DNA from: Ruditapes philippinarum
Lineage: Eukaryota
Assembly (NCBI RefSeq): GCF_026571515.1
Contig: NW_026854840.1
Coordinates: 1-64,000, forward strand
Length of the DNA: 64,000 nucleotides
Direction of reading: 5' to 3'
The notes below the pieces were generated by a model that saw nothing but the letters and a program-made list of their open reading frames with translations, was not told the origin of the DNA and did not search any database. Shown here in pieces: positions 2,231 to 64,000 of this stretch. The translations under genes and the position numbers were made by a program. The stretch's first letter is position 1; each line of letters starts with the position of its first letter.

Positions 2231-2348
2231 GTATTGTAGCATTGTAAAGATAACACTTTTGCCGATCGCTGCCGTGATCAATGGGCAAGTTGTGCCAGAC
2301 ACAGCGAGTGTTCTTACATCGTGTAGTAATGGTGGTTCCGGGTTCAAT
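2231..2348 (+). pseudogene. Disrupted copy of the middle C-terminal-domain exon from a fourth paralog
   Basis: AG at 2229-2230 and donor gtcagt at 2349. Reads VL*HCKDNT/(frameshift)LPIAAVINGQVVPDTASVLTSCSNGGSGFN, homologous to gene B exon 46298-46429 (VMTKC...[31 protein letters not shown]). It is 118 nt versus 132 nt, with an in-frame TAG. Neighbouring exons were not found by eye. Confidence 0.75.
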
Positions 2349-25318: not shown

Positions 25319-25362
<44 letters not shown>

Positions 25363-30900: not shown

Positions 30901-33900
30901 GGGGAACGCCATGTTTGTTCTCGATATCGTGAATAATACCCACTTAGTATTGGTTTTCCAGGGGTTAAAATTAGCAACCGTATCGCTTTCAAAATTTCAA
31001 TCGCTTTCAAAAGCTCGCCGATGATTTGCAGTTTGAAAGGTCACGAGAAGGTTAGCTCCTATTGATGCCAGTCAGATCGTTATGCGTAATTTTAATCAGA
31101 TTGGATGGACAATCTGCAAAATGCGTGTAAATACAAAATATTTATTACCATTCTCTAAAGTGTGTGTTATTTAGCTTTTATAATAATTATTTTTACTTTT
31201 TCAGAGGATGATGTTTGCAAAGATTTCTGGGATTCCATTTCATGCACAGGTAAATTGATTTAAAAAAAGGTCAATGGTAGAAAACCATATAACTTTGTGC
31301 AAGACCAAAACTAAACAATTTCTTTGTCGTCATTCGGTTCTTCATAATTTTAAAAATAATAATAATAATAAATTAAAGAGAAAAAGTTCTAAATTCATAG
31401 AAAAACTTAAACTTGTAATTTCGCTTTTGTCTTTTTCATCAAATTCAGAACACAAGAAGAAAAACTAAACAAAAAACTATACGTGTTTCTAAGTTGCCGT
31501 CATCAACGTAGAACATGATAAAAAGAATTGACAATTTATTGGATTGAATTACTATTGGAACTCGCATAGGAATTCAAATGTCTTTGTTCAGAGTTGTGTG
31601 AAGTAGCTTTTCTCTCCCGTACATATCGTAAGATTAAGAACAAACTATTGTCTTGTCAGACGTCTATCGTGATTTGCACTCGCATATCAGATTGCTATTA
31701 GACTTTTTTAAAAATGCCTATATTTTTTACTTTTTCCACAATGATATATCACATAAATTATGTTGTTCCCGTGCACATAAATAAGTGTCTGAATTGCAAA
31801 AGGTAAGTGTGCACTTGGTCACAGCGGAAGTTTGTATGCTAATATAAAGAAATAAATATATAAATAATAGCCTATTTTCTCTATGAAAATATATGTATCT
31901 TTTGATCTAGTTATTTTATGTAATTATTTTCGAAAATTATATATGCTATGTAAAAAAATTACGTTTATACATGTACATACATATGCACATGTTTTATTGT
32001 ATTAAACAGTAATAGACGTTTTATATTATTGTAATATTGTAACGTTTCTTTTACGCGCCAAATGTGACGTCTATTAACGTATACGTCTGTTTTGTACTTT
32101 TACGTCATTTCCTTAATGTGTCAACTGAGGAAGCTGAATAAAGCGAAACATGTGTTGATACTTAATTTGTGTTGGTTTTGATCCAATTGTCTTAATATAT
32201 AAATAAGCAAAATATTAGGAATAAAATAGTGTGGAAATTAGCAAAATAGATATATTGACTACAAAACTGTTTGAATGTGATTGAATTGTAATTTTGTGAT
32301 ATCTTCTTGGTTAATATCTTGTTTCCTTTATTAAACTATAATATAATAAAAAGTGTTTGTGCCTTGTTTGAACATGGTGACGCAAATTTTTGTGTTACCT
32401 CCGGTATTTAATGATTAACTAATGATTAATTTTCATCCTTCCAAGTATCTTGATTAAGTTCACTTCATTAAAAGAATTTATCGAGCCTCGTTACATTTGT
32501 TGCCACATTTATACATTCAATACAAAAATTCTACAAAAATCTTGTTTTATTTTGCAACTTTACGTTTTTAAGCCATGGTGTCTCTCATTTAGCCTTAATT
32601 CACATGGTTACAACGGCAGATGTAAGATGATGTGTGGCAGCTGTAAAAAGATGTCAATTTCTGTACTTCAGGGTTTTTTTCTGGCCCTTCGGGATAATTG
32701 CATACAAAACGCCTGTGTTGATAATTGTTTTTATACCACTTAAGAGGTGCTCCTTGGCGTTTGATAGGTTGCGTTTCGATAGTGAGGTAGTTTAAACCCC
32801 TGGTGTTTCTTAAGTTAACACCTGAGATTAGCCAAGTTCATCTTTCATCTTTTAAAGGGTTATAATCCTACTATTTTACAACATATCGTATGCTTAGTGT
32901 TCAACTCATTAACAGTTTGATGCTACGCTTTACTGTTTTGATTACATTTGACGGACAAAGTCGGAGACTCTATGATGGGCAGATTTTAAAGCCCATTAAT
33001 TTCAATCATATTTTATTGCTATAAACATGTATATACAATACAGATACAAATTTTATATGTATTATAAACAGCAAAAACAAACGGGTTGGGCCCAAGTTCT
33101 TACAACATTAGCGGTCGGCCCTCCACGGAAAGCCTATTGGGACTGAATTGCCTTAATTTTGCTTCGTCGGGCCCTTGTAAGTGATCTTTTTGTTGCTCTG
33201 TCTTCCTTTTAGACATTGAGTACTTTTGTTATGGTCATTGGGTTTCCTTTTGTACGTTTCTACATGAGCATTTCGATGTTTTACTTATTTCACCCTGTGT
33301 AACTATGACAACTGTTAGAATTTTACTTGGCGGGGATTTATTTACTTACACTGTCTCGTTTATAGGGACATGGTGGAGCTAAAAGTGAGGTTTGGTGCAC
33401 CATTAACCAGTTTTAATTCCCCAGCAGTATTTATGCTGCTGACCGTTCCAAGGCGGCGCCCCTCTATGTTCGTCTGATATATGTTTTTGTTGTTTCATAC
33501 TGTTCTGGTGACACTTTTGCGTCCCTTGTTGATTTCTTGTCCACGGTAAGTATCTTCCCCTTTGCCCCCAGTTTTTATTTCCATTATTTATACCCCCTTC
33601 ACCAGGTGTCCTGTCCCCTTTGACTTTATGGGCCTATTATTCAGTCATTTATTTTTTTTCTTTAGTTCCTTATCAGTTACTAATTAATTCCTCTAATGTA
33701 TGATTTTAACGATTAACCTGCCCATGCTCCGCCTTTTGGCCTGTCCTGTTTTTGTTTAGAGTCCTTCTGGGCTCCTTGCGACTGGCTCTTGTTGCTGGAT
33801 CGTGTGGGGGTTGCGTTCGTTGAGCGCCACCTTTCCTTGTTGATCTTGTTTATCATATTTCCTGTTGCGGCGCCATATGACCTTTATTATGTTGGTCGTC

Positions 33901-36900
33901 ATAAAACAAAACAAACACAACTATAATGTATTATTTTCTCGTGTTCTATTTGAATAGCTACAGCTGTTTCATCTGGAAACACTGGAGTAACATCCGATCA
34001 CTGTGCGAGCGCACTGTGCAAAAATAATGGAACTTGCAACAATGTCCAAAGTACTTACATGTGTAATTGTCAGACAGGATGGACGGGAAACACCTGCGAA
34101 ACAAGTAGGTTTGTTTTAGTAATAGTTATTACTCGTTATCATTATTTCTGTTTTTATTAATGTTATAATTATATATTAATCATGTATTGCATTTTGTTTT
34201 ATGCAATTATTTTACCATAATTTTCAGAACTTTTGTTGTAATTTTTTTATCATTGTTGTTGTTGCCATTGGTATTATAATTATTATCATTATTATTATTA
34301 TTATTGTTGTTGTTGTTGTTGTTATCATTATTATAATTATTATTATTCTCATTATGAGTAGTAGTAGTAAAGTAGTAGTGGTAGTGTTGGTGGTGGAGGC
34401 GGTGGTTGTTGTTGTGGTGGTGATGCTTGTTGCAGTTATAGTATGAGTGGTTCTGATTGTAGTATCATATTTTGTTTCTTTAAATTACATTACTCATGAA
34501 ATTAAGCCTTTGTCTTAAACTGACCAACACCAGAATCCCAATATATTGTGAAAAATTGTAATGTTCTGACCGACATACCTCGAGGAAAACAAATTTTGCA
34601 GTACGTACTTAAGCAATAAAATATTATAAATACAATTGAATTCAATATGTAACTATCTTTTTTATAACGTATTACAAATACTTCTTTCTCTTAATAAATT
34701 TATGCACATTCATCACATTGTGTATTTAGAGGTACAACCGCAAGATCAGTGTGCAACTCTGAACTGTCACCATGGAACATGTTCCATAACCAATGGCGTG
34801 GCTAGTTGTACCTGTAACCAAGGCTGGAAAGGCAACCAATGTCAGACAGGTATCATTGAACAGTTTAACAAGTTTAAGTTTTAAGTTTACAAGTTTAACA
34901 AGTTTTATTCATATCAAACCAGAAGGTCAACGACCCATGTGGCAAAATGCAAATATGGCAGTTTACAAACTAGCATATAAGACCTACATAAATAATATTA
35001 ACGAACATATTTCCGTTTCAGTTTACGTAACAGTAAACATAACTTATTTAGCAAAAGGTATTGAGTTTTGCATTTAAAATAGTTTACATAATTACAAACG
35101 AAACTGGTGACAGATATGAATATAAACTGTCCAAAATACATAGATAACTAAGTGATTGAAGCAGTTTACCGGAAATATAGCAAATTATGATTTTAAAATT
35201 ATTGGTAACAATGATTCGCTGAATGAGTAAGATAATATAACATCTGAGAAAACCATATTTGTCAGCCTTGTCCGAAAAACGAAAGAGACAAGATTGGCAT
35301 ATGGTAAAACAAAAAGTTGTTTAACAATATCATGAAATAAAAGATATATTTACAAATTTAATTTTACAATTACTTAAGTTGCACAGTTGACAAAGTTACT
35401 GCACCTTAATAACCTTAATTACGCTGAATGAAAAAAGTGTTGTTCCTAACATTAAAAGATTGTAAAACATTGAACTGTTATGTACTATTTGGTAACATAA
35501 ATTGTTAATTTTACTGATGCAATCGTTTAAAGTTTCGGAAATATAAATAAATTTTCCTGGAAACTTTGAATAATACAGATGCTTAAACAATAGTCACTGT
35601 AAGGTTAATCATGACATCAGTTACAGTTTCAAGAAGCATGACGTCATTGTAAGCGTATTGAAGCATGATACCATTCTAAGCTTATTGATATATGACGCCA
35701 TTATAAGTGTATTGAAACATGACGTCACTCAAAACTTATTTAAAGATGACGCCTTTGTAAGCGTATTGAAGCTTGGTGTCATAATAAGCTTATTGAAACA
35801 TGACGTCATTGTAGGTGCAATGAATCATGACGTCATTCTCAGTTTTTTGAAGCGCAACGAGATTCTAAGCTAATTGAAGCCTAACGTCATTTCAAGCTTA
35901 TTGAAATATGACGCCATTGTAAATGTATTGAAACATTATCTCATTATAAGTTATTGAAACATGACGTCATTTAAGCGCATAAATGCATGACGACATTCTA
36001 TGCGTATTGAAGCACGACCTCATTCTAAATTTTTTGAAACATGACGTCATTGTAAGCATATCGAAACATGACGTCATTATGCGATTATTGAAACATGACG
36101 TCTTTGAAAGCGTATTAAAGCATGATGTCATTGTAAGTTTTTTGAAACATGACTTCGTTGTAAGCTTATAGATAAGAAGCTCGGAAAACTCTGTAATATG
36201 ACTAGAAAACGGCAAATTGCACGTTTAAAGCTGATGACGGTTTACTTAAAATTAGACTTGCCTCTGAAATCATGTACCAATTGAAAGGCTTTCATCAAAA
36301 CTATTAAAATGTTTCAAATTAATTCAATTTAATTAACACTTAACTATCTCTAAAGCTATGTTGACCCATGTGCATTTAACATAGATATAGAGAACATGAT
36401 GGCGAAGGTTTATCAGGACAGGAAGAAAGTGCGAGCTTTGGGGAACAAAGATTCACTTTCACAGCAAACCGGATAAACCGACTTCAGATTTGTTTTCGAT
36501 TCATCTTGCTTTTGTCTATTTTTTTCATGTTGTTTAGATTATTCAAACGGTTTCATTCACGATAACCTTTCCCCCGATAAAACAGCCTTTTTCTTGCATA
36601 TCAGACAGGATTATCTACCGTTTACACCGGTGCTAGAAAACCCTGTCTTACACCCCCCCCCATGTAAGACAAGTCGCGTGCTTTAAATGACGTCAGTGCT
36701 GCGCGCCTTTTATGAATGAATTGCGTTCTTAGGATGACGTCACTTAACCGTTATGAATGAAGCTGTAAGTTCATACGCTACTATTAGAAAAAAGTGCGTA
36801 ATGAGAATATCAGTTTTCGTAATTTCTGTTCTAAAATAATTGATATGTAATATGCAAGAAAAAGAATCAAACACTGGCTGTCGGTGCAGACGGGAATATC

Positions 36901-38197
36901 TAGCTCTCGGGTGACTGTTTAAGGCGGAAACTCGGCAGAGCCTCGTTACTGCCGTAAACAGTCACCTTTGAGCTAGATATTCCGGTCTGTACCGGCAGCC
37001 GGTGTAAGATTCTTATAATATATAACTACTAACCATGTAACGTCATCATAGGCTATCCATGTGACGTAATGACTGGAGATAGATAAGCTAATCCGTCAAG
37101 GCTTTATCCAGTTGATAATATAGACAGTAGCAAGATATTTCTTGGTTATTTCAGATATTAATGAATGTACACAACATCCATGTCTTCACAACGGATATTG
37201 CATGAATACGGATGGAACATATTCTTGTTCATGCGCGAATGGTTGGGAAGGCAGTCAGTGTGATATAGGTAAAATATCGTGTTTTTTGTATAGAGTTTTA
37301 ATGGTTTCACATATCAAGCATATAAATGGTTTGTTCACTTTATTTTCCTGTTATTCTTACGCGGATTTTTTTACGCTTTGGTCATATCTATCTTAGTTTG
37401 CTTTCCGCCTAACCGGCTACAGTGACAAAATGGGGAATAACCTCGCAATCGACAAACAGGATTCTTAGCCACATTTGCTTTCTGAATAAGTTGTGGGAGA
37501 CAAATGACCATTAGACTTAATGTCCGAAATCAAATGTGACAGAGCAATGAGGCCTCGTGAGAAAACCTAATCAGATTACATATTTAAACTGACAAGTATA
37601 AAATACTAAATTGTCCTATAATTTGAAAATGAATTGTTTATTTGTTTTGATTAAATATATGCTCGAATTTGCGTTTTGACCCTTCCTTTCTAGTAATTCT
37701 TTTTCATCACTGAAATAGCACAAAATGACATAAAAGAAAGGCTAAAATGTTTGATACAATTTTACACAATTGGTATTTTTAAATTATAGACGTATATTTA
37801 TAAATCATTTCATGCTAGTCAATCTATACAATGGCCTTGAGAAAAAGGTAGTTAATACAGTTCATACAGAATCGTATCAGTATCATTATAATTTAAACGA
37901 AAAATAAAACAAATGTAAAAGGCAATGACTAGTTGGTTTTATTTAACCATTGAACATTCATAAATGGCTACAAATGGGGTATACACAATGCACTATTCTT
38001 TACATGATCATACACGACCATGTGTTTTTTGTCCACAGACACCAATGAATGTTTGAGGAACCCATGCCCTATTGCCAACGCTACCTGTACCAATACTGAT
38101 GGGTCATACACCTGTAGTTGTCCGAGTGGATGGGAAGGCGTTAACTGCGAAATAAGTAAATTAGAAAACAACTTTACATTTGTGTTTGCGTTTGTAT

Positions 38198-38254
<57 letters not shown>

Positions 38255-41200
38255 CGTGCGTGTGTGCGTGCGTGTGTATGCGCGTGCGCGTATGTTGGTG
38301 TTTGTTCGTGCGTGTCTGTGTGCGCGCGCGATGATAATAAAAACTAGCTGTTTCTTTAAGACCTGACTATTCGTTTTTGTTCAAGCAAAATAATTTAGTT
38401 GTTATAGTATCTCAATCATTTACGTGTAAGTATAGTAATTGATGAATTGTTGACATTTCTCTGGCATTACCAATTATTTTACAGAAAGTAAATGACAGTC
38501 GCATCTTGAACCAGTGCTGAAGGACATACTATCACAGAAAGTTGATTATTTATCTTATGTACGGAGTCATCGTTCTCCAGAATTTTCTGTTCCTGACCGT
38601 CTCAAACGGACACGTACGTGTTTGATCCGGAATGTTGCTCCATAACTTTGAGCCTTCTTAAACCTAGATGAACTATTTCGAAGTCACCTTACTTCAATCG
38701 TATTAGGGACGCACAATAACGTGATGAGGCCCGGCTTTCACTTACATTCTCAGTCTGAGACAAATCTCAATCTAAGATTTCTAAATAGTGCCCGATATTC
38801 TTACTCACCTGAGAAAATCTCAAGTTTGTTTTCACTTAACTTTTTCTCAACACTTGAGATTTTTCTCAACTGCAATCTTCAAACGTTAATGTAATTGTGA
38901 ATTGTCGGCATGACTAAAATATGCAACACAGATTTATGTTTTGAAGTATACAGATCTAGTTACCATTTTGGTTTAAACCGAGGCAACAGAGAAATATTTT
39001 GTATATTTTCATTAGATCTACAGTACCTTATGGGCATACATGTTTTTCCAAAATACAAGAATATTTAAATGGAAATGATTTATCAAGGATGAATATAAAA
39101 GTAGGTTGGGATTTTTCTCCGGGAAAAAGCTCAGATTTGAGCTGAGATTCTGACTTTGAGAACGTTAGTGACAACCGGGCAACGATTGACAGTAAAAGTT
39201 AACAGCGGTCTGTTAGTTTGTACAAATGTAGCTCGTTCGTCCTTTTTCACATACATACGTTACTCGGTCAAATTACGTTTTTAGTACATGAACGTAGTAA
39301 TTATATCTAAACACAATAAATCATTTCTGAACAACATTGCATCACGTTTCAATCAAGTTTTTAATTTTTAAAGTACAACGTGGTCTCTCAGTACGCTCAA
39401 CCCGTTATGAGTTCGGGGACACAAACTAGTGTCACCAAAACAGTATGAAACAACAAAGACATACATTTGAGGAACACAGACGGGCGCCGCCTTGGAACGG
39501 TCAGCAGCAGAAGAACTGATGGGGTGTTTAAATCGGTTAATGGTGCACCAAACCTCACTAGCCCCACCCTGTTCCTATAAAATAAAATGAAACCCCGCCA
39601 AGTGAAATTCTAACAGTTGTTATGGTAACAAAAGGTGAAATAAGTAAACGTTCAGACGATATATCTTGAGAAAAACAGTCTGTTACTATCATTATTATCA
39701 TGTGCTACAAATACTTCTTTCTCTTAATAAATTTTTGCGCATTTATCAAATTTTGTATTTAGAGGTAAAACCGCAAGATCAGTGTGCAGCTCTGAACTGT
39801 CTCCATGGAACATGTTCCGTTACCAATGGCGTGGCTAGTTGTACCTGTAACCAAGGCTGGAAAGGCAACCTATGTCAGACAGGTATCATTGAACTGTTAT
39901 ATAAACAGTTATGTATCTGGAAACATAAATTGTTAATTTTACTGATGCAATCGTTTATAGTTTCGGAAATATAAATAGATTTTCCTGAAAACTTTTAATA
40001 ATACAGATTCTTAAATAGTAGTCTATGTAAGCTTATCAAAACATGACGTCATTATAAGCGTATTGAAACAGGCTGTCATTGTAAGCGTATTGAAACATGC
40101 TGTCATTGTATGCGTATTGAGTAATGACGTCAATCTAAAATTATTGAAACAAGAAGCCATTGTAAGCTTATTTAAGCTGACTGTCATTATAAGCTTATTC
40201 AAACATAACTTCATTGTAAGCGTATTATCAAAATGCTCGGGGAAACCATATTATATGACTTAAAAAACGGCAATTTGCACGTTTAATGCTTATAAATGTT
40301 AACTTAAGACTCAATTTAATTCCATCATTCGAAGAATTAAAAGTGCTGTAATCATATTAAACCATGAGCTGTTGAATGCATTTTCATTCGATTCGTCTAT
40401 CTTTACATCTACTATGGCTACATGTATGCCACTCAATCTTGTGTATTTAAGATAGATATTAGAAAATACATGGTTGATGTCGCGATGGAGAAGATTTATC
40501 CGGGCAGCAAGAAAGTGCGAGGTTTAGCGAACAAAAACTCACTTTCGCAGCAAACCAGACAAACTGTCTCCTATACCGAAATCAAAAATGTATTCGATTT
40601 ATCCTGCTTTTGTCTATGTTGTCATGTTTTTTTAGATTAATAAAACAATTTCATTCAAATTTAGTTTTCCCCCGATAAAACAGCGGTTATATGTACTTAC
40701 TTACTATGTAACGTCATCATAGGCTACCCATGTGACGTAATGACTGGAAATAGTTGATCCGGCAAGGCTTTCTCCAACTGATAATATAGACAGTAGCAGG
40801 ATAAAGATATTTCTTGGTTATTTCAGATATTAATGAATGTACACAACAGCCATGTCAACACAACGGATATTGCATGAATACGGATGGAACCTATTCTTGT
40901 TCCTGTGCGAATGGTTGGGAAGGCAATCAGTGTGATAAAGGTGACATATTATATTTGTGTATAGGGTTTTAATAGTTTCACATATCAAGCATATTAAAAT
41001 GGTTTGTTCAGTTTATTTTCCTGTTATATTTTCAGTCGAATTAAAACACTTTTCGGTAATATCCGGTTATATCGATCTTAGCGGTCGATCCGCTTATTCA
41101 GCTACAGTCCCATGATTAGCAATTTCCCCGCAAACGACCAACTTGATACCCACATTTGTTTTCTGAATAAGGGATGAAACACAAATGACAATTAGACCAA

Positions 41201-44200
41201 ATGTCTGAAATCAAATGTAACAGAGCAGAAAACCTGTTTATATTACATAATTAAACTGACAAGAATAAAATACTTAATTGTCCTATTTTTTTTATAGTGA
41301 ATTTGTTTTGATTAAATATATGCTTGATTTTTCGTTTTGATCCTTGCTTTCTCCTGATTGATTTTTTTTTCATCGGTGAAGTAGCATTAAAATCACAGAA
41401 AAGTATAATAAAATGTTTGATAAGAAATTTATTTACCGGGTTATTTATATTTCATTATTTTAGACGAATATATTAATTAGTATATTTTTATATCTTTTCA
41501 TGCTCGTCATTCTATACCAGGGCCTATTGAATTAAGTAGTTCATACAGTTTATACAGAATCGTATCAAATATAATTACCATCGAAAAAACAAGTTTAAGG
41601 CAATAATCGGTTGGTTTTATTCAACCACTAAATGGCTACAAATGATGTATACACAATGCACTATTCTTTACATGCTTATACACGACCATGTGTCCTTTGT
41701 CCACAGACACAGATGAATGTCTTCTGAACCCATGCCCTAGTGCCAATGCTACCTGTACCAACACTGTTGGATCTTACACCTGTAGTTGCCCAAGTGGGTG
41801 GGAAGGCGTTAACTGCGAAATAGGTAAATTAGAAAACAACTTTAAGACAAAATTATACACTTGTGTTTGCGTATGTTTGAGTATGTGTGTATGTGCGCGC
41901 GTCTTTGCGCGCGCGTGTGTATTTGTGCGCGTGCAATGGTAATAAAGTCGAACTCTTCTTTAAAACCTGACTGTTCGTTTTAGACATGCAAAATAATTAT
42001 GTTTTTATAGTATCTCAACCATTTACGTGTGGGTATAGTAATTGATGAATTGTTGATATTTATTTCTCTAGCAATACCAATTATTTTACAGAATGTAAAT
42101 GGCAGTCGCATCTTGAATCAGTGCTGAAGGACGGATTATCACAGAAAGTTGATTATTGATCTTATGTACGGACTCATCGTATTTTAAACTATTAACAGAC
42201 TGTTTCAGGACGGCCAAGGATGTGTTCGGGAATGTTCCTCCATAACTTTGAGCCAACTCAAATATTTGGTTTGGCATCCCCGTACTTTGATTAGATGGAC
42301 TTCCAACTTTCTATCGAGATGAACTATTTGAACGCAATTACAATACTTCGTCCGTACAAAAAACGCGCAATAACATGACGAGATCGGGCGATGATTGACA
42401 ATAGGAGTTTACAGCAATCTGTCAGTTTGTCAGCTTGTTCGGCCTTTTCACAACATAAGTTATTTCATAAGTCACATTACGTTCTTAGTACGTAATAATT
42501 CTGTCTAAATATAATAAATCAACATCATTTCTGAACAACATTGCAACACGTTTCAATCCAGTTCTAAATTCGGACACTCAGACAAAGTAGAAATAATATT
42601 GGGCAGTTTTCTCATGAATTATCTAGCAACTGTCTTGCTAAAATTTTGATTTATTCATTTCTGTTGGAAGTGGAGCAATAAAACGATGGGATGGTAGAGC
42701 GACAAGACAAAGAAAGTGTTGTGTGAGGACTGCTTGTGTTGCTCTACACTTGCAAATGTCGTTAGTTTGATATTGTCTATTTGAACGCCTATAATGAACG
42801 GTTGAAATAGAATGAGAATGACATATACATGCTGTTGTATAGCCGGCAAGACTGGACGTTATTTTACTAATGACGATCTGAACGCACATTGGGCATGATG
42901 AGGACTTGACAAGGACTTTATCAACTGTCTATGAACAAAGTGGACATGCTACAAACTTGTTCGTGCAGTATATAACGTATTTCTTATGTGTGAAATAAGC
43001 AACCCAACGGATTTAAACAGACTGCAATCGGCCATAAACTGACTGAAAAAGATGTTACCGGGTAATAAACCAGATCTGAACGGACTTCATGCGGTATAAC
43101 GGCGGTATCAGCGTATCATTAACTAACTGTCTGTGAACTATTTGGTTCGCATTGTAGATATTTTCCGGCGATATTTTTGCGTCTTACCACAGCCCGTCCA
43201 AGGATATTTTGAGAGTTACGGACTAGTTTGAGTGACAGAAGCATTAAGAAAAGGCATCATGGACTCGTATTGAAATTTAACTTACTATTCTCCCAGTAGC
43301 GCTTATCGTGATGCATGTACACCCAGTGTATTGGTAATGCAATTGTATGGCTATCGTGAATTAAAACATTTGTATTACATTGTTAATCCTTGTATTTTAG
43401 ATATTGATGAGTGCACAAGATACAGATTTTGTCAGAACGGGGCCACGTGTGTAAACACCCAAGGACAGTTTACTTGCACGTGTCAGAGTGGATGGAAAGG
43501 AACGCAGTGCCAAACAGGTTTTTGTGATATTTGACAAATTATACAGTCATGTTGTATAAGTTTGGTTTGATACTTCTGCATTGTAATTTCTATATCCACA
43601 TTATTTCTTCTTGAAATATTTACTGAATTTGGTCGAACCAGAGTGCTGGCTTTAGTTACAAAATGAATTGCAGTGATTGTACTTTTATAGGACACTAATG
43701 GGTTAATGTACCTTTTCTCATGAATAAATATCAGACTCGGCACAAGCACAATGACGCATTTAATGACTCTGTAATTCAACACACACATGAATATTGAATG
43801 CAAACAGAGACTAAAATTTTATGCTGCTATCTTGAAATAGGGTTTAGCCGGTAAATTATGATTTCACGCATTCGCTGGAAAAGAAGTATATTGAGACAGA
43901 CATATGTTTGTCTTTTGAAAATATTTCTTTTTTTCAAACACTTATTTTTTAGGCAAATATATACCTTTATACACTTTAATATACATTTGTATTTTGTAAA
44001 GTGTTGGATGTGAACCTGTTTGGATGTTTCACCAGTTTTACCTGCCTCAGTATAATGACGATATTTGCAGGTTTTCTATTTGAATATTAAAATATGTTTG
44101 TAATGTAAGATATTGACGTTTTTTGGTTTTTTTTATGTATTTTTTTTTCATTTTGATTAGTTAAAGTGACATTATGCTCATATTTTCAGTCAAGTGGAGC

Positions 44201-47200
44201 TGAATTGACTATATATTTCAAAAGATTGACAATCAAAATGGTGTTTGACCAAAAGTTGATATTGGAAAATGTTTTTGATAAAATTATAAATCTGCCTAAA
44301 ATTAAAAAAGACTGCCCTACTCTTTTTATAAACTAAGCATTAAAGGTAAATTCTAATGGATATTTACAGAAATTTCATTTGGATTTGTGCGTTGTTTATT
44401 GTTTATGCGAACTTACTTAAATTACTTGAATTAAAAGATATTATGGCAAAATGAAAACATTTTTTATCTTCATCCGTTCACTCACTATATACCCTTAGAT
44501 TGGCATAATGTCAATTTAAGTTTTAATGGCGCACCAACACTATACAGGTCATATGGTGCTTACCTCGGGTTGTGCTTAAGAATGCCCAGGTGATAATGTA
44601 ATTGTTGAATTAATATCACTTAACACTAAGTCTTACAAACTTAAAAGCAACACTAGGTGGCATAACCACCTCACCTGCTGGAGCTGAGTTACACAGATCA
44701 CATTTGTTTTTCTAATTGCATGGTTTTCAATTTGTGTTAAAACAGATGTGGATGAATGCTTGAGCAACACTTGCAAACATGGAGCTTGTAGCAATAACCA
44801 AGGCTCATACACATGTACCTGTTCTCCAGGGTGGTTTGGAGTTAACTGTGAAAAAGGTTCTCAAATATATATTTTTAATTTTGGAAACCAGTTATCTTTT
44901 AAATGTTCTCTTAGTAAAGACAATGTATTAGATAACTATCAATTATCATCAGTATTTTGGCAATTGATATGTTTATATATGATAATCATTTGTGCTTTTT
45001 TGAACAGATTGTGTAATTTTAAGTGCAGAAATGAAAAATTGTACTTTCAAACTATATGGCTATTAGCTTTCAAATTGAAATAAAAGTAAAATGGAATTTA
45101 CATGATTTTGTTACTTTACACTATTTATAGCAACAATGTTGCGCTTTCCAGTTGGTGACACTTTTTAATACATATAAACATAAGTGCGTCCCCTGTTCTG
45201 TCGACGCCCTGTCAGATGCAAGCCCAATATTGTGGCATAGAGCATGTTATTGTTAGAATAATCAACAACTTTTAAGTAGCTTTGTAGTCCTTGAATACTA
45301 AATATGCGTTCTTATAGCGTCAAGAAATTTGGTGAGTTCGTTTAGCGAACACTTGAAAATTAATACTTAAAAATGTGTCTTTTTTATATTACGCAGGTGC
45401 TAACTCAACCGAATGTGATCATATTTGTTCCCTAGAATCGGCCGTGAAACAGGTACCAGTTAACTTCCCCTCTGCCACGTGCAGTGGTTCCTCAACTTTC
45501 GCTCCGAATGAGGCGTTGCTTCAAACATGTTGTGGTATTGGTGATAAATCGGGTTGGAAACAAGGAGAAAAGGTAAAATTAAGTGTGAAACCACAATTGT
45601 TTGAAGACAATTGTACAAATTAGTCATTTATACTTGATTTATCAAATAAGAAGGGTCAACTCAGTAAAATTGTTAAAACTTATGGTCCAACCCTTTTGCT
45701 TTTATGATTATCTACAACATCTCCGAAAATGTTTTGTCATACGTTTGCATGTGACATTGTATTTGTTTTGTGTAGAATGAAATATAGAATTAAATAAAAA
45801 AAAAGAAAAAAAAAAAAAAGAAGCAATAAAATATGATCAAACTAAATTTGTCTGAAAACAATTTTATCTCAAGTAAGAGATTGAGTGTTTCAAATACATT
45901 GTCTTGTTCAAAGTTTAATTACTTTGTTAAATTGTATATTGTATATTAAAACAACTTTTGCAGAGCTACATTTTGTGCCATACCCCATGGATACTTACAT
46001 GTAATCAAAAAATTATTCTTGTCAAGTTGCCAAACAGTCTAACTGTTTCACAAACGATAATTCGTGATAATTACCATACATCGTCTTTCAAGTACTACTG
46101 GATCAGTTGTTGTGTAGTACATGTAGTATAACAGTAACCTAAAAAAGGGTTAAATTTAACATGTTAACTTATACAGAATTTGATTAAAGAACCTTCGATA
46201 TCTAAGGTTGATATTCAGTTAAAACTGATGAAATTCTAGAGTATCCATAAAATTCGTATGCTTTTCATTGTCAAAAATATTTATTTATATATAACAGGTC
46301 ATGACTAAGTGCGGCACAAATTCTATGAATGCATTCACGCCAGTGGCTGCCTACATAAACGGTGTCATAGTACCTGACACAGCTGGCATCTTGACTGGAT
46401 GTCTTCATCATGGGGAAACCGGCTTTATGGTATTTTATTTTTCCAAGTTGATCAATCTGGAACTGAATATTTGGAGAATAAAATATATAAGACAACACTT
46501 GCATTGCCATATTACAATTCAATACATTACTTTTTTTCTAAACCTAGCTTTATCAGTCAGATATCAGCTAGATTCCAACGATATAGAAGTGTGGATGCTT
46601 AGATAAAGCATATATATTGTTTTTATAGGACGGGCCCCACTTAGACTTTTTCAAGTCACGTACCTGGAATGCTTCAGAAATGTCTTACCATGTAATAAAA
46701 ATCTAAACCGACAATTCGCGTGCAAAATTTCATATCATGACCACCTGCTCAATCCGCTTTTTTAAATTTTTATTATGCTCAAATTTGATGTTTTAAAATA
46801 TTGATAATTGCTACATGGTCCCTTTGTAAATATAAAATAAACAAGTTTTGACTTCACACGAAGTAGATATGTTATGCTCTAAATCGTTCGGACTGTAAGT
46901 GGACAAAATAGAAAGTGTGAAAAAACTGGCAGTTTTTTTACAGAAAGGATTAGCTTTACTTGACCCATAATAAGAAACGAATATTTTCATATACTAGTAT
47001 ACTCTGTACGTTCTTTTATATAATCATAATAATAATAATAATAATAATAATAAGACATACTTATTCAGTAATAATGTTGTAGATTCCAATACATAATATC
47101 TGCAATAACAATATTATCTTTTGTGATCATTTCATAGAACAAATTGACCTCAAAAGTGTCTATTACGTATAATTGACCACAAAAGTGTCTATTCCGTATA

Positions 47201-47826
47201 ATTATGATGAATTTAACAATGGTCAGGATCACTGTCACTTTCTGTGGATCATCATTATCAAATTTTATAAATAATATAGAAATGGACAATATGGGCAATA
47301 TGAACATGTAAAAAGTCAGATAAGCTTACACATACATTTACGATCAGACTGCAGGCATGACCGGTGTTTTTTTTTATGTTTTCTTTTGTTAAAATCCTAA
47401 ACTACACGATGAACAATAACTTTATTTAATGACCAAAGACATCCTCTTTTATCGAGGCGTACTCGTTACGTATACCCTTTATTCGAGTATTTTTGTTTGT
47501 GTTATTTTCTTTCCGGCGCACGAATATAATTTTTGCCATATTGCGCCGACACAAGACCAATGATTCTGGCTAACATTCGAGTGTAGTCCAACGGAATTTC
47601 AACAATGGTTCAGAGAAGTAAAAATTTAACATGAATTCTGAAGCCTCATGGTTAATTATTTAGTTTCTGTTCCTGTGTTCAGGAGTTGTTTTTGTTATTA
47701 TAATATCCTTTATATTTTCAGATAATTCGGCAAGATTGCTTAACAAAGCCGACACTATATCACTTGAATGGCACAAACACTGGCATTTTTGAGAGTAACC
47801 CACAAAAGTACTACGAACTGATATAA
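27983..47826 (+). CDS. Gene B: secreted protein, signal peptide + 6-Cys N-terminal module + 9 EGF-like repeats + C-terminal Tae2/Dae2-like domain lacking catalytic residues; about 581 aa
   Basis: Manually spliced, GT-AG, frame continuous (1746 nt). Exons: 27983-28052 ([23 protein letters not shown]), 29902-30042 ([10 protein letters not shown]...[20 protein letters not shown]), 31205-31249 ([15 protein letters not shown]), EGF exons 33958-34104, 34730-34849, 37155-37268, 38039-38155, 39763-39882, 40827-40940, 41707-41823, 43401-43517, 44746-44856; C-terminal exons 45397-45572 ([15 protein letters not shown]...[10 protein letters not shown]...WKQGEK), 46298-46429 ([44 protein letters not shown]), 47722-47826 ([34 protein letters not shown]). 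Confidence 0.9.
32855..33860 (+). mobile_element. Decayed 3' portion of a probable Penelope-like/non-LTR retroelement
   Basis: Stop-ridden reading [42 protein letters not shown] (32855-32989) resembles, from memory, the C-terminus of bivalve RT-only retroelement ORFs. The terminal ~110 bp (…gttgctggatcgtgtgggggttgcgttc…ttgatcttgtttatcatatt) recurs at about 17797-17900(-), 19440-19575(-), 20984-21085(+), 22268-22368(+), and an internal piece at about 39470-39650(-). Confidence 0.5.
34250..34440. repeat. Compound trinucleotide microsatellite (ATT/GTT/GTA/GTG)
   Basis: Direct inspection; explains the poly-Ile/poly-Val ORF 34201-34446. Confidence 0.9.
35605..36170. repeat. 27-bp minisatellite (about 21 units), consensus ttgaaacatgacgtcattgtaagcgta
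   Basis: Visible 27-bp periodicity; a shorter array of about 7 units sits at 40030-40230 in the duplicate. Confidence 0.85.
38195..38330. repeat. (TG)n microsatellite with CG-rich extension
   Basis: Direct inspection. Confidence 0.9.
38728..39180. mobile_element. MITE (PIF/Harbinger-like termini)
   Basis: gcccggctttcacttacattctca ... tgagaacgttagtgacaaccgggc imperfect inverted termini; essentially absent from the duplicated intron copy near 42380. Confidence 0.6.
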
Positions 47827-47851: not shown

Positions 47852-47857
47852 AATAAA
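47852..47857 (+). promoter_or_regulatory. Putative polyadenylation signal of gene B
   Basis: AATAAA about 25 nt after the TAA stop. Confidence 0.5.
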
Positions 47858-47900
47858 GTTATTATGTGGTTGCTATATTCTTTTTGACTATATGACAACA

Positions 47901-54400: not shown

Positions 54401-57400
54401 TGAGTATTCAATGCGAAACAAAATAGATAATTTTATCTGTATTTTAATAATGGGGAAAAGTTATACCCGCAAAAAGGGCAGCATTATTAGAATTCAGGAC
54501 TGTTCAACGTCTCGATGAGGCAAATGTTAAACAATATTGTTCTGTTTAATGGCTTATTCTAATACATTATCGAGTTGCAAACGTGCATTGTGTATTTGTG
54601 TAATTCTAAATGATACACACGGAAACGAAGGACACGAAAACACGCAAAATGTGTTCTCTTAATATTGAAGCTTTTTAATGATACATTCTCAATTTAGATT
54701 TAATAAATGAAAATTTGTGCTTATCTATTAGTTTTATTTGTTTTATATCTTATTTTATTTATTTAGTTTTATCAAGCATTATTTCAGAAAATTATGTTGT
54801 AATAAAAGATTTCTTGCAGCATATGAATGAAGTGAGTTTCAGATATATTTTTCTTTGTTTCATATTTCAAAGATTTGACAAGATATAATCAGATCTGGAA
54901 TGCAACTGATTGTTCAGGTATGACATAGCGTTACATATTCCAGGCGATAGTAATTTTTAATTTGACTAAAATCAGCTCCTAAATTACGCTACCCATTAGG
55001 ATCTGACGGCCACCAATAGCTTGTCATACCGCGATCTTTCAAACAGCCAATCATCGAGAAAGCTTTCACAATTTTAAAAGCGATGTTGTTTGTAATTTTA
55101 ACCACTAGAAAAATGATACTGAGAAGTTTATTTTCAAGAACAAACATGGCGTTGTCCATATCGCCTGCAGTTAACTGGCATAATTTCTTTTCATTCATTT
55201 TATGTCATTTTGTGAGTTACGGATTATTGTCCACGCTTTTTTACAAGATTTTATATTCTTGCTTACAGTTTGGAATGGCACGATAGAGTGACAATGAAAG
55301 CCCCCTTATCACCACATTAAAAACATTTACGAATGTTTCAAAATTCTTAACTTATAGCAATGTGTGTTCCTGTTTCCACGAAACGCCTTAAGCAGATGGT
55401 TATTTTGATATTTTTGATATCTTTATATTAATACAAACATTTTATGCATGAAAACATACAGGACCATATGCACGACCGGTGGGTCCATTTCAACTTCCAG
55501 AATTCACGATTTCAGCTTCATTTATTCAACTTCATGAATTCGACATTATGAATTTAACTTCACGATTTTAACTTTATGAATTCAACCTCGTGAGTTCAAC
55601 TTCATGAATTCTGCTTCACGATTTCAACTTAATGTATCCAACTTCACGATTTCAGCTTCATGAATTAAACTTTATGAACACATGTTTTGAATTACACGAT
55701 TTCAACTTCGTGAAGTTGAAATCGTTAATTTTTAAAGTTTTAGTGAAGTTGAATCGTGAATTCTTGAATTCTTGAAGTTGAGATCGTGAATTCTTGATTT
55801 CTTAATGTTGAAATCGTGAATTCATAAAGTTGAAATTGTGAATTTGTGATAATGAACCTGAAAATTGAAGAAGTTTTTGAAATGTCACCACATGCTTTTC
55901 TACATATGTAATATATCTTTATTCTGTAATGATTCAGGAGAAACAAGATGCGGATTAAGTGATCCATGCAAAAATGGTGGGCATTGTATTGACAAAGACC
56001 ATGGTAATTTCTACACATGTAACTGTGAAAAGAACTTCACAGGCATAGATTGCAGCATCAAAGGTTAGCGCATGCGCATTTCCTTCAAAACCTATTCCTC
56101 GATCATTAAAAAAATCGTATGTTTCAAAGATTATGTCGAGTAGACGAGGCATATACTTTAATATAAACTAGGTCCATGTCTGTAATATTTTCCTGCTAAA
56201 AGATGTGTACAACTTGGTAAGTTTATATGAATCATGTGTCTATCTTGATATTCCGTTTTTGTCATCAGCATTATTGTTTGTTAATGTACGGGTATATTGC
56301 ATTTACAATGTATGAATATTGAATGTTTTGTTAATTTTACATAATCTACATTTTGATTCATTTGGTTTTGTGTTGACGAGAAACAATATGTACATTGTAT
56401 TACATCGATAATCAATTGACTGTTTATTTTACGAAGCCGATAGTAACGTTTGCCTTCATAATCCGTGTCTACACAATGGAACATGCAGTAATACTCAATC
56501 AAATAAAGTGAAATGTAACTGCCCACTTGGATATGATGGCCAGTTCTGCGAGAATGGTATTTATTTCAGCGCCATTTATTTACTTAATTTATATTTTTAT
56601 ATCGATATATATATAAATAAGTGGTGACTTAGTTTAACATTACAGTGGTGGCCTGTCAAACCTCAACCAATTATTTGGCATAGCGGTGCATGAAATAAGT
56701 ACTGGTTAGCTTTTGGGAAGCGCAGTCGATAGTGGATGAGATGAGCTTCAAACTTTAATTAACATTGAGCTAAAAATAAAATTGTCGAAACTGACTTTCA
56801 ATGTTTAAACCTTAATCTAAATATAATCGAGATTATTTCGTTACTATGCCTAAAACCGTATTTCTACTAAGTATGCTTGACCGGTGAAATCGGAATGGAA
56901 GTAAGTTATCTATTTAAAATACGTCGTCTTTTCTTCCTTAACATCCATAATCTCTGGCAAAGGTATGGGTATTTCTTACTGTATGTTATGCTAAACAAAA
57001 AATTAAACTAATTTGTGTAATATGTTAAAACAACCTCGTCTTAAATAATCCAAAATATACTATTGGAATCACCCTAATTATTTTAAATTTATTGTTCTTA
57101 TGACTACAGAAAATGTAACAGATAATCGTAATTTAAGTATTTACTGGTATAATGCGTTTACTAAACGTCGCCAATGACTCAATTCAATGTAAATTGCCAA
57201 TTGTACATGTAGATATCTATAGCATAATGTTATGTTACTTATGATGAGTCATTGTAAAAAAATCTATATTTTTAAAGAATATTGTTTCTCTCACGATGTT
57301 TCCTTTGCCCTTTCCCATTGAGCTACAAACACAATACAGTCATGTATTATTAACACAGACATAGACGAGTGCGACCAGTTCCATCTTTGTCAAAATGGTG

Positions 57401-60400
57401 CGACTTGTCATAATACCGATGGTCACTTTCAATGCATTTGCCTTGCTGGTTGGAGCGGTACCCTTTGCGAGACTGGTAACTTTTTCATTTACATCAACTT
57501 TACAAGAACACATTTGTTTAGTCTTTCTGAAATTTGTGAGTCAGATATTGAGAAAATCAACCGAATTTGTTAAATGGTTTCAGGTGCAACTGTTAGGGTG
57601 TGTTTGTTAAGCTTGAGAAAACTCGTTTGAAAAAATTATAGCCACGGTCATAAACGACATTTTTGCATATTTTTATTACAGGATATATTTGATAAAGAGT
57701 GAGACTAAAAAGTGTTGGAGCCGTATTCCGGTATATAACGGACAAGGCGCTTAAATGAATGAAATAAATGCTGAAATCTTGCCTTTTCACTCAAAGAAAT
57801 GTACATTTAAATGTTTTATACACATCTTCACATCAATTTATATACGATAACGAATAAAATAATATAAGAATGGACGAACAGAAGAGGTATTTTTCTGCCT
57901 TGTGATCATGATTTCTGCAAGCGTCTTTAGGTACTGCTCAATACTGTTGTGATAAGTCTATTTTGGTACATTTATGATTGAAAATATGTCTGACAAAAAT
58001 ATTTAAATTTAAATGTGCCCACAAGCTGATGTTACTATTTTAAACAAATCCGATATAATGTCAACAGGTTAGTGTCTTGTACTTTCGGTTTCTACAATCA
58101 TTATAATAAATATATAAATAATGTATCTTTTGCTATTGTTTTTATGAATTCACCTCTTTTAGGTGGACTTGATATATTGGAAATAAACTTGTCATCTCAG
58201 CATTAAATTACTATTTGTTTACATGTTTAGTCCGAAATACCGTATCCGTTCTGTGTATTCATGATACGAGCGTATTGTGTTCGAGGTGAAGACTTACGGA
58301 AAGGGCCGAAAAGTTGCGATTCAAATTGTATTTGTCTGTGTGTGGAGTGAGTTGATTTACATCTTCAGTTTATCTTTTTTTGCTCAGATGTGGATGAATG
58401 CTCATCAAACACTTGCTTGAATGGAGCCACGTGTAATAACACACCAGGCGGTTATAATTGCACATGTGGGTCAGGATGGACTGATGTAAACTGTGACACA
58501 GGTAAATAACATTTTCAGATTGAAATTAAATTATTAGTTTGCGAGATATAAAACAGGCTATAATAACAGATAAGAGACTTTTGTATTCGGTTTTTTGAGC
58601 TTTTTCAATTTTGAAATTCCTGTTTAATAGATTGGCGACTAGGAAGCTGTGGTCGGGCGGACGTCAGACATGTGGTTTCCTGTCTATAACTAAAGTTAGG
58701 AATAATATTATGCAATAGCAAATTTATGTAGAGACCTCGCGTGGGATTTGTTACTTAAAACACGGTATCTGATCAATAAATTATTGCATGCAAATAGCAA
58801 GCTTACTAAGAGACCGTGCATTTGACTTCTTTTAATCCTCTTGTGGGTTTGGTGGTGGGAGTCAAGGTCGCTGTTACTTAAAATAAAAAATGGTTTCCGG
58901 TCGATATCTAAAATTAGAAATTAGATATAGTAATAACAATTGATATTTATAAATTGATTTTGGCCCTCCTAAGGTCAATGTCAATGTCTTTGTTTACAAA
59001 AAATTGAAAAATGATTTCCAGTCAATAGCCGGAAGGAGTTAGGAATCTTTTCACACGGTGTTACACCGTTAACAATAGAATGATCTACGTCTTGCGCGTT
59101 TTACAGGTATTTTTATGTAAAAGTTTGTTTGTACGTGGAAAACTCAATATATGTTAAATTTCGGAGTATATTTGTTGCTAAGGAAAATGTTCTAGCTACA
59201 CTAGCTAAACACTTTTGCACACGATGTAGACATGTATGTTAAATTATACACATTCAATTCGGTTAAATTTAACCACTTGGTTACGTATAAATTTTATTAA
59301 CCAAATGTATAAAAATTGGATAAAATTTAACCGGCGTAACATTTTGTTTCAATTAACACTTGTGTGGGAGGGGGATTGAACTTATTAACCAAAATTTAAC
59401 CAGAAATAGAAACGGCTGTCGTTAATCTACTGCGTCTTAATTTTCATTCACATTTGTATAAAAGTAAACAATAATGGTCTTATATGATGGTAACTCTATT
59501 AGAAATCATGATATGATGGTAACTCTATTAGAAATCATTTAGAACTCTATGTATTTGCAGTTAAAGAGACACGATTTTGTTACAATAGTAAATTAATACA
59601 TTATTTTATTTTCCGGACAAGATGTCAACGAGTGTATGAATAGCCCTTGTATAAACAATGGAACATGTAATAACCTTAATGGAACCTACGACTGCGCCTG
59701 CCCCTCAGCATGGACCGGCACTAATTGTGAAACAGGTAAGTGTGATCTTCTGCCATTCATTTAAAGAATATATCATACAATTTACTTGCACTCATTCAGT
59801 ACCCTCTAATCTGATTTTATATCACATCACATAAAAATCAAGATGTATTTTAAAAGATGTGTTTAAATCATTGAATGCTATGCCATGTCTTTTACAGATT
59901 TAGACGAGTGCCAAACCTTTAACTCAAAAGGGTTTTTATGTTGGAACAACGCAACGTGCACAAATTCGATTGGTGGCTACACGTGTAATTGTGCAATTGG
60001 TTGGAAAGGACTATTTTGCAAAAAAGGTATGCATATTTAAATAGTGTATGCATATAACTGGAATTTTCGCCTTTTAAAGATTACTGCTTATTTTCAAGAA
60101 AAAAAGGAAAATCTATTTAACAATATTATACAATGTACATGTATTATCAAGTGAACAAAGAATGTTATCAACACATTGCAAACACCAATCTTTACTTGAA
60201 CTTGAAATGTTTCCTAATATCTTATTTTTTAAGTTGATTTTCGTGAATCTTGTGGCTTATCTTGATGCTTTAAGCCTTTGTCTTGTTAAGAATGGAGAAA
60301 ATCAAGGACAAAAGCCGTTGATAGTGAATAAAAAAATGACATCTTCATAAAGGAGTGCATGTAATTGACGAATGTTAGAAGTAATTTGTAAATGTACGGA

Positions 60401-63400
60401 GCAATCTTCAAATGAATTCATACTTGAGCATGGAAATATGTATAAAATATATACAGTTATAAAAATTAACTGGGTAAAATATGGGTATTTTTGTAAATGG
60501 GACCAATAAAAGAAAAGAGAATTGTGATACTAAAAATACAATACTGACTTGAAATTAAATTATCAAGACTAAATTTAAACATGTGTCGACTATTCTCCTA
60601 TACTTAAGATCCTAATTTTTCTTTTTTGTTGTTGTTTTTTTTTATCAATTAATGTCGTCATCTTATCATTTTGATTTTGAATCTTGTAGAAAACCACGAT
60701 TGTGACAGTTCACCGTGTGGAAATAATGGAACTTGCTCTCTTACACCATCTGGATTTAATTGCACATGCCCAGAAGGATGGGAGGGACAAGCATGTGCTC
60801 ACGGTGAAAAAAACCAAAACGTTTTAACATAATGTGTTTATGATGTGTTACGGGAATGTTTTAAAGAAATCGTTATTTAAATAACTATTCATATAACGAT
60901 TCTTTATGTTATGATATATTTTTCCTTTTTTTCTCTTTCATTTTATCAAAGGTTTTACAAATGATATGATATATTTAGACACAGTACATAAAAAATCGAT
61001 ACTTTTCAAAAGTTAAACGTACTGTCGTTATTGTGACTCATATTTCGGACTCATGCCAGCATTAAAAGAACACCCCTGAGTTTTTTTGACACGATGGGAT
61101 TAAACATTATTTCAAGATAAATGTTCCATTTTGATATAAGATTAGACCAACATTATCTTTATGTTTCTGGACTTTTGAACCTCAGTGGAGTTCGTTTATT
61201 CGTTTAATTACCTTTGATACTTTAGAAAAAAAAACACGAATTATGCACGCGAGCGTTATTTCAACTGTTGCCACTATATTACATTAAAAGTCGTGCTATT
61301 GTTACAACAACAACAACAACAACAACAGCAACAACAACATATTTAAAGGTTATTATAATATTTTTACAGATGCTGATGAATGCATTTTACAACCTTGTTT
61401 GAATAATGGTACGTGTTCTAATACAGAGGGTAATTATAGCTGTAAATGCAAACCTGGATGGACAGGCACACACTGTGATACAGGTAAATATTTATTGGCA
61501 AGATTGACCTGAAACATTTCAATATTCATTATGTCCTCTGAATTTAAATATTCAGTTAAAATTGACCTGTGATTGAAAATAAATTCCTAAGATATTTAAA
61601 TATTCATTATACATGTATCATCAAAGTTTTAATAATCATTGCATTGACCTTCTTCCGTAGTGATTGGCAATATATTCCTTAGATATTTGAAAATTCAGTT
61701 TGCCATCAGAATTTCAATATTCATTACATTGACCTTCTTCCGTGGTGATTGGCAATATATTCCTTAGATATTTAAGAATTAATTATGCCATCAGAATTTC
61801 AATATTCATTACATTGACCTTCTTCCGTAACTTAGGGCCCAGTTACACAGACGGTCGGTCCCCAATCGGTCATTTAATTTTAAATTTACTCGCTGTTATG
61901 ATCGGTTGTCATGCGTGATTTTTATCTGGTTATCTGTGTAAACGGCCATCGGTGACAGAAAGCAAACTCAAACGGGAATGGGTCGATGATTAAATGCTGA
62001 AATACTTTTGGTTTTTATCGTTTGTAAATCGGAGCTAAATCGGGCGTAACGCTGATTAACCGGTGTTTGATAGCTAGTCATCAGTGGTTAAACACTTTCC
62101 GTCAGATATGGCCGGTGATTCATATTTGGTCACCTTTGTCCGATCGGCGATATCGGTGATTAAGAGCTTGCACATCTCGTGATATAGGTTGCCGTCGGTA
62201 ATTTTTAAAATATTTTCACCGATCGAGAATTTTAAACGTGTTTAAAAGTCCCAATCGGTAATTTTTCACCGATGAAACTTATCTTTCCCCAATAGCAGTT
62301 GATAGGTGGAAAACAGGTGACCAATAGGTGATATCGGTGATAAATACGTTGTCATCGGTTCACTCCATAATTTGGCTAAAAAAACTACCGATCAATCACC
62401 GATGGCTCTGTGTAACTGGGGTGTAAGAGTATGAGAGCATCAGTGTAACTTAATGTAAAATCTTCTCATGTTAACATGTAGATCTAATAGAAATCGATAG
62501 GAGGTCACCCTCTTGTGACCTTTCAATCAGCCAATCAGTGGCCGCGTTCACGATCATGCAGCGGTTTAGTTTCTATTTTTAAGAGTTTATAAACAAGAAA
62601 CTTCTGCGCGATTTTCACAATTTCAAGATATAGCAGGTGAACAAAAAGGCAAAGCCCACGTTTTTTTTAAATAAATATTCTAAAATTGACACTTACATAA
62701 TGAAAATGATAGAATATAATTACGTTCCTAAAATTGAAATGTCTGTCTTAATTTGAAAATCGTGTTGAATCTGATGATCTGGTTCGTTCATAATTTCAAA
62801 TATTTTTGTAGAAAAAGTTTAATATAAAATTTCATTCGGTTTTCGTCATCTGGTTCAAAACCATAGAAGAAACCAAACCGCCGAATTTTCTGTTTGTGTA
62901 TCTATAATGTACAAGACATATAAACTTAACAAATCCACAGTGTTGTTAATGACACAAACTGTCAGGAAGAATCGGGATAAAAATAAATCTATAAAGAAAA
63001 TACATGTGTGTTGAATTTGATTCGTCCATATTCGAAATATAATTCCAAAAGCCAAACGAGAAGTTGACGGCCTGAGCACTTCTTTTTTTAAATACAACAT
63101 CCGAACTGAATATTCATAATAACATTGATTTACTCTTCTGATTCTAGACTATTCCCAGAGGTCACAGATATCAAGAGGATTAAATTTTTCGTTTGAGAGA
63201 AATATTGAATATATATTCACGAAACATGATAAAAGGCGTATATTTTCATGAGCCAGAAGGCAAGTCAAAATATGTGTCATTTTATCACGTTGAGTGATAA
63301 TATATACCATATTTCATGAAGAACGTAAAAATAACCTTTTTATGTAATTTCATTATCAGAGAAAAATGGTTTCGAATCTCCTTGCGGTCTTGTTTTGACT

Positions 63401-63850: not shown

Positions 63851-64000
63851 GTTTGAGTTAAAAAAAGCCAATACATTATGTATACCTTGATATGAGGAAA
63901 TTCATTTTTCCAAGAAAGCAGTTACTTTTAAACATTTATTGTGTTTCTACATGTACACTGTAATTGTTACCAAGATCACTAAAGGCTTATTGACAGATTC

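Follow-up and report, generated by a model that had tools for sequence, protein, structure and literature searches.

The stretch analyzed here, the window, comprises 64,000 nucleotides of the clam Ruditapes philippinarum (contig NW_026854840.1, positions 1 to 64,000 of the forward strand). It carries two paralogous genes with open frames, genes A and B, a degraded copy upstream of them and the EGF exons of a further paralog, gene C. Genes A and B encode EGF repeats followed by a C-terminal domain with the predicted fold of the peptidoglycan amidase Tae2. The catalytic Cys-His dyad of Tae2 is replaced in this domain, and the gene B domain and its family are very probably pseudo-enzymes.

In gene B, three exons with AG/GT ends join in frame and encode a 136-residue C-terminal domain that ends at a TAA stop (Table 1). 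The gene corresponds to the NCBI protein XP_060585349.1 (P0001, 581 aa), labelled Ruditapes philippinarum 'neurogenic locus notch homolog protein 1-like', which maps exactly onto 15 exons of the window. P0001 begins with a hydrophobic N-terminus and a small Cys-rich module, continues with nine EGF repeats and ends in the domain (residues 446-581). A hydrophobicity scan, which is not a dedicated signal-peptide predictor, found the hydrophobic N-terminus and no later transmembrane window, so P0001 is not expected to be a membrane sensor. The Notch features looked for (LNR repeats, a transmembrane segment and ankyrin repeats) were not found in P0001, in which Pfam gave EGF-type families only, and the Notch label derives solely from the EGF repeats.

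Splicing of the three GT..AG introns before and inside the gene B domain was seen in RNA contigs from two of the four runs. One 621-nt contig covers the region from EGF8 to the last exon, with the Asn and Thr codons at the former dyad sites kept. The other two, raw-read runs gave a depth of ∼2 or 0 on gene B exons and no exon joints. Downstream of exon 3, an AATAAA signal at 47852-47857 is followed by a poly(A) loose end behind 47875. In run X1, a second, deeper contig over 46309-46429 shows six base differences from gene B exon 2, with apparently three residues changed and one silent change; it represents either a divergent allele or a close paralog.

Within the stalk, EGF2-4 (34732-38154) recurs near-exactly as EGF5-7 (39765-41822), flanking intron sequence included. 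The stalk was lengthened by this recent duplication within the gene. The N-terminal module (29904-31248, P0001 residues 53-84) has the pattern C..C.C...C...C...W..I.C after a (R/K)RF(L/I)(L/F)D motif and was found in seven of the proteins collected. It had no Pfam match, and its fold prediction remained below 50 in predicted local distance difference test (pLDDT).

The gene B domain has no Pfam or NCBIfam name: single exons retrieved nothing from Pfam, and P0001 gave no match to the NCBIfam hidden Markov model NF033857. Ten of 11 homologs scored 13.4-23.6 bits with this model, and none reached its 27-bit cut-off. The single domain, used without a profile, had no match among PDB sequences. The Atlas pointed the domain to BPSL0067-family clusters (features 0.93; structure TM 0.76). 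An AlphaFold2 model built from a 46-sequence alignment had a pLDDT of 90, and Tae2 of Salmonella Typhi (PDB 6WIN, NF033857) was its only Foldseek match at E≤0.001. With VIA, 6WIN was the best of 48,161 chains (Z 12.8, root-mean-square deviation 2.9, 115 aligned; next match 9.0), and it was also the top match for a second model, built from a paralog. The best fold neighbours of the gene B model were all peptidoglycan hydrolases. At the sequence level, a 22-sequence family profile searched against 177,635 PDB sequences retrieved 6WIN as the sole match at E≤10 (E 0.034), which makes Tae2 the best match of the domain in the PDB by both structure and sequence. The family profile also aligned with bacterial BPSL0067 proteins at a profile-profile probability of 98.3 (104 of 120 proteins kept; the pattern used to find them fixes their IATF and HAAI columns as invariant). 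Gene B shares with Tae2 the fold, the core motifs W..G..V and T.IA.F and the Gln of DQW, and differs from it by adding four predicted disulfides, introns, a predicted signal peptide and an EGF stalk. We therefore predict a Tae2/BPSL0067 NlpC-P60 fold for the domain, in line with the homology to Tae2 and its tick counterpart Dae2 on which the initial annotation had built.

The catalytic residues of Tae2 are Cys23 and His73 (10.1101/2020.04.10.036376). In the profile alignment to 6WIN, Cys23 falls on the column of Asn482 of gene B and His73 on that of Thr531; the Asp and Trp of DQW are lost as well. The replacements read earlier from the letters alone were thus borne out: Asn at the nucleophile site in both genes (SNEAL in gene A, codon AAC 19898), loss of the His in three copies (EAAGIL, with Ala, in gene A; Thr531 in gene B; DTASVL at about 2292-2309 in the degraded copy), and RQDC for DQW in genes A and B, each of which has an open frame and eight Cys in the domain. 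MAFFT and global hhalign returned an alternative register, with Cys473 on the bacterial catalytic Cys, that needs a gap of 8-10 residues. This register was rejected because an active homolog, L196, carries both that Cys and the catalytic Cys and aligns gap-free from the structural through the catalytic Cys (hhalign probability 99.1).

The extent of the loss was analyzed in a search of 1.84 billion representatives, which gave 55 matches at E≤0.001. Forty-five homologs were aligned with the query, giving 46 domains; the query itself, its genomic fragment, seven partial or spurious matches and a repeated-domain oyster protein (P0012) were omitted. Names were looked up for 20 of the 55 matches, and the named members come from Mercenaria, Mactra, Potamilus, Sinanodonta, Saccostrea, Pecten, Mytilus and the abalone Haliotis rubra. 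P0012, from Magallana gigas, has up to three dead domains (those without the dyad) in tandem. Cys is absent from the nucleophile column in all 46 domains (Asn in 14, Ser in 12, His in 7, Pro in 7, six others; ten residue types), as is His from the base column (Leu in 16, Thr in 11, others). In the clam genome, the catalytic Cys was found in 0 of 26 distinct exon-1 sequences and the His in 0 of 29 distinct exon-2 sequences; these totals are lower bounds, may include haplotypes, and exclude one chance regex match of 30 (L208). An active copy was sought in this genome with NF033857 and with one active protein each of the bacterial and the eukaryote type, and only dead exons or noise were retrieved; an NF033857 match (L022) was a repeat, and L163 and L200 bear no resemblance to the family. 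In one clam subfamily (G000:C7860, C10701, C11746 and C992), His occupies the former nucleophile site (SHEA motif, 8 of the 26 exon-1 sequences). Word-based homolog searches recovered nothing beyond the query gene or a small number of mussel proteins, plasmid sequences and viral contigs had no match to the domain, and phage sequences gave three matches, at E 1-4 only. Dyad loss thus appears to be family-wide, in bivalves and abalone and in dozens of copies in the clam genome, a scale that the initial annotation, limited to the visible paralogs, had understated.

Four Cys and Trp498 are invariant across the 46 domains, and new positions are nearly so (Gly at 533 in 45, Pro at 518 in 42). At family scale the Cys skeleton and the core are conserved, whereas NEAL and RQDC, put forward from genes A and B together with the eight Cys, are not family-invariant (Asn 14/46, Arg 7/46, Asp 9/46). 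Cys455 never occurs without Cys489 (11 domains with both, 33 with neither and two with 489 only, one of those truncated). The co-occurrence pattern suggests four disulfides in the gene B domain, 451-490, 455-489, 473-553 and 508-538, with no free Cys.

A motif scan of metagenome contigs gave four matches, of which three (L195-L197) were kept as active, Cys-rich, eukaryote-type Tae2 homologs, since the fourth (L194) was a chance match in the frame of another gene. L196 (P0079) has a signal-like N-terminus and, in contrast to the mollusc family, full catalytic motifs (QCV, GHAA and DQW) on a mollusc-type Cys skeleton, with each of the five core Cys that follow the first and with matches at 451, 473, 490, 508, 538 and 553. 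The dead-family profile gave L196 a score of 76 bits and the best bacterial protein one of 37. In L197, an additional N-terminal domain shows marginal likeness to the SH3b-type N-termini found in dead members (E 0.04, best of 501), a resemblance that was not used.

Skeleton Cys were found in 0-11 of the 104 bacterial members. Tick Dae2, like gene B a eukaryotic Tae2 derivative, bears a signal peptide, as is predicted for gene B. It has Cys equivalent to 451, 490, 508 and 538, and not to 473 or 553, and an aromatic residue at 516, as compared by eye in Supplementary Figure S2 of PMC11347951. The skeleton is common to the active secreted eukaryote-type homologs, partly to tick Dae2, and not to bacteria; hence the likely parent of the mollusc domain is a domesticated enzyme. 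The proposal that a bacterial toxin domain was repurposed needs correction, in that active, secreted enzymes of the eukaryote type are closer to the mollusc domain than the type VI secretion system toxin itself. The same figure shows Ser in place of the catalytic Cys in the type 1 Dae2 transcript of Ixodes ricinus, which may reflect an allele, an error or a PDF fault.

A quick IQ-TREE tree (89 rows, 103 columns, built from mollusc, bacterial and active eukaryote-type rows) placed the 46 dead domains on one side of a branch (Shimodaira-Hasegawa-like approximate likelihood ratio test, SH-aLRT, 100) and 40 bacterial sequences on another (96), with the active eukaryote-type rows between them. The dead domains appear to form one clade, which may share common descent with tick Dae2. 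If the enzyme lineage is shared, the domain would have been captured much earlier, and more widely, than the described tick transfer implies.

The ratio of nonsynonymous to synonymous substitution rates (dN/dS) was counted by NG86 on exons 1 and 2 of the clam paralogs. One of 23 copies dropped out and four contributed one exon only. Of 228 non-independent pairs, 26 were unsaturated. The ratio was below 0.4 in 20 of these 26, and 0.10-0.29 in the five closest pairs, so the dead domains appear to be mostly under purifying selection. Together with the breadth of the family across bivalves and abalone, this agrees with the earlier argument for selection rather than decay, from which the DTASVL copy has to be removed: exons 1 and 2 of this copy are frameshifted and a search for its exon 3 found none, so we take it as a degraded pseudogene, which says nothing on selection.

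These data suggest that (i) gene B belongs to a real, ancient and expanded pseudo-amidase family, the function of which we infer; and (ii) gene B resembles the domesticated dae genes in being an intron-bearing, expressed, eukaryotic tae-derived gene, and differs from them in lacking the Cys-His dyad. Dae2 keeps both Cys and His and lyses Gram-positive bacteria (10.1101/2020.04.10.036376). It is a single-domain protein of which two types are described in Ixodes, whereas the mollusc family is dead, multi-domain and present in dozens of copies.

Loss of catalysis that turns an amidase into a receptor is the logic of the non-catalytic peptidoglycan recognition proteins (PGRPs). These have a different fold, and the mollusc proteins gave no Amidase_2 match. 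Precedent is not confined to a different fold, as had been supposed: RipD (Rv1566c) of mycobacteria has an NlpC/P60 domain with catalytic Cys and His replaced and is reported to bind peptidoglycan (PMC12067865). RipD thus shares with the mollusc domain the superfamily fold and the lost dyad, and the binding reported for the one is proposed for the other. It differs in being bacterial, in keeping the third residue, Glu, and in its distance from the gene B domain (Foldseek rank 50, E 0.69), so catalysis was presumably lost independently. An inactive DUF1175 is likewise mentioned as binding peptidoglycan (PMC10318531).

The reading that we tentatively prefer, though we would not call it probable, is a secreted, non-lytic head that binds peptidoglycan or whole bacteria. 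It draws on the ancestry, the retained fold, the peptidoglycan-hydrolase fold neighbours, two SH3_3 fusions and the RipD precedent. In the likely history, a bacterial Tae2-type gene would have given rise to a secreted, disulfide-bonded eukaryotic Dae-type amidase, active in the ancestor of bivalves and gastropods; one lineage would have lost catalysis once, before these groups split, and been kept; and the dead lineage would have multiplied in tandem arrays and been shuffled behind different spacers. In gene B, the secreted protein would present the dead domain on its nine-EGF spacer, and the head, in mucus or haemolymph, would trap or mark whole bacteria or peptidoglycan by binding to them. 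The bivalve-gastropod split dates to the Cambrian. That the complete history holds, from a horizontally acquired toxin fold through the disulfide-bonded lineage of tick Dae2 and a single inactivation before that split to an ancient peptidoglycan-recognition family expanded as a modular head, is doubtful.

Several observations weigh against this reading. The Asp and Trp of DQW vary (the commonest residue is found in 7/46 domains at the Asp105 site and 9/46 at the Trp site), as do the positions conserved around the groove in active enzymes, with ten residues at the Cys site. The conserved acidic residue after that site would fit an ordinary helix start. Because the search for homologs started from a dead query, active copies in molluscs might have escaped it, and the placement of L196 beside the dead clade has a support of only 82. 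The dN/dS ratio was 0.59-1.13 in 6 of the 26 unsaturated pairs and 0.52 over 131 codons between gene A and its closest copy, and gene B was saturated in dS in the five paralog comparisons listed. The N-terminal partners among the 46 domains are EGF (11), TSP1 (5), SH3_3 (2), VWA, ShK and V-set (one each) and Thr-rich stalks. The EGF stalk described initially is present in genes A and B (seven and nine repeats) and is one of several N-termini in the family; EGF, TSP1, VWA and Thr-rich partners suit matrix or mucus proteins equally well.

The variable groove residues and these matrix- or mucus-type partners make it nearly as likely that the dead enzyme became a general extracellular module that has host proteins or glycans as its ligands, be it in mucus, shell matrix, gamete coats or another matrix, and for which the bacterial ancestry is irrelevant. 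Such a module would keep core and Cys fixed while the old groove drifted, would tolerate fusion to EGF, TSP1, VWA, Ig, ShK and Thr-rich segments alike, and would account for the very long retention and the new near-invariant positions. It sits less well with the bacterial-type SH3_3 match in two members (one barely above the cut-off), with the RipD precedent, and with the large tandem expansion, which is typical of bivalve recognition families. A soluble, predicted secreted protein without a transmembrane segment, with a retained fold and many diverged paralogs, might instead be a scavenger that soaks up muropeptides, damping immune signalling or managing symbionts, or a decoy that keeps bacterial inhibitors off a host cell-wall hydrolase; the clam genome searches revealed no active Tae2-type partner, and we regard this reading as improbable. 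Smaller still is the chance that the domain remains enzymatic through other residues, namely Ser at the old Cys site (12/46), the adjacent Glu or Asp (44/46) or His561 (28/46): the Cys site of gene B is occupied by Asn, the base site lacks His in every member, the eight Cys can all be paired by co-occurrence, and His561 lies on a later strand of the predicted model. Neutral decay of a once-active gene would explain the frameshifted copy in the window and the pairs with dN/dS near 1, and is scarcely credible; the open, spliced frame of gene B, the Cys and Trp invariant across bivalves and abalone, and the low ratios in the five closest pairs have already largely refuted it.

To our knowledge, the domesticated Tae amidases described so far are enzymes with antibacterial activity. 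The mollusc family represents a second fate, in which catalysis was lost and the domain was long retained and greatly expanded across bivalves and abalone. No description of a dead mollusc Tae2 family was found in the literature searched, which covers few subscription papers, so that a prior mention is possible; Chou and colleagues reportedly listed dae genes in some molluscs in 2015. The family is hidden under the labels 'notch-like', 'fibropellin-like' and 'uncharacterized', and its domain is without a Pfam model. If peptidoglycan binding holds true, it would be a new class of mollusc recognition protein, relevant to shellfish immunity. The shared Cys skeleton offers a direct test of the age of the Dae2 transfer.

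Table 1. Features of gene B and of its paralogs in the window.
Feature	Coordinates	Strand	Remarks
Gene B 5' exons (27983-28054, 29904-30041, 31204-31248, approximate)	27983..31248	+	predicted signal peptide, RRFLLD motif, small Cys-rich module; exact P0001 mapping
Gene B, nine EGF exons	33957..44858	+	one EGF each; EGF2-4 repeated as EGF5-7
Gene B, domain exon 1	45397..45572	+	Asn482 (codon AAT 45507) at Tae2 Cys23 site; Cys 451, 455, 473, 489, 490; spliced in RNA contigs
Gene B, domain exon 2	46298..46429	+	Thr531 (codon ACA 46379) at Tae2 His73 site; Cys 508, 538
Gene B, domain exon 3 with stop	47722..47826	+	RQDC (47728-47739) replaces DQW; Cys 553
Gene A	6809..21226	+	signal exon, seven EGF exons, dead domain (exons 19791-19963, 20424-20555, 21122-21226)
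Degraded upstream copy	978..2345	+	frameshifted exon 1 (about 978-1100) and exon 2
Gene C (next paralog), EGF exons	56412..64000	+	dead domain past the window end at G000:C3327:71913, Ser at both sites

Beyond gene C, two further paralogs lie on G000:C3327 near 146 and 152 kb. Both the degraded copy and gene A have intact counterparts, in the same order, on the minus strand of G000:C8999:1-65000, with a DNA identity of only 70-88%; this stretch is either a very divergent haplotype or a second cluster. Tandem satellite-like arrays are present in the window at 3600-5050, 7700-9000, 12350-14000 and 25350-26900, and occur on C8999 as well. Elements resembling short interspersed nuclear elements were seen near 47900, 48470 and 50000.

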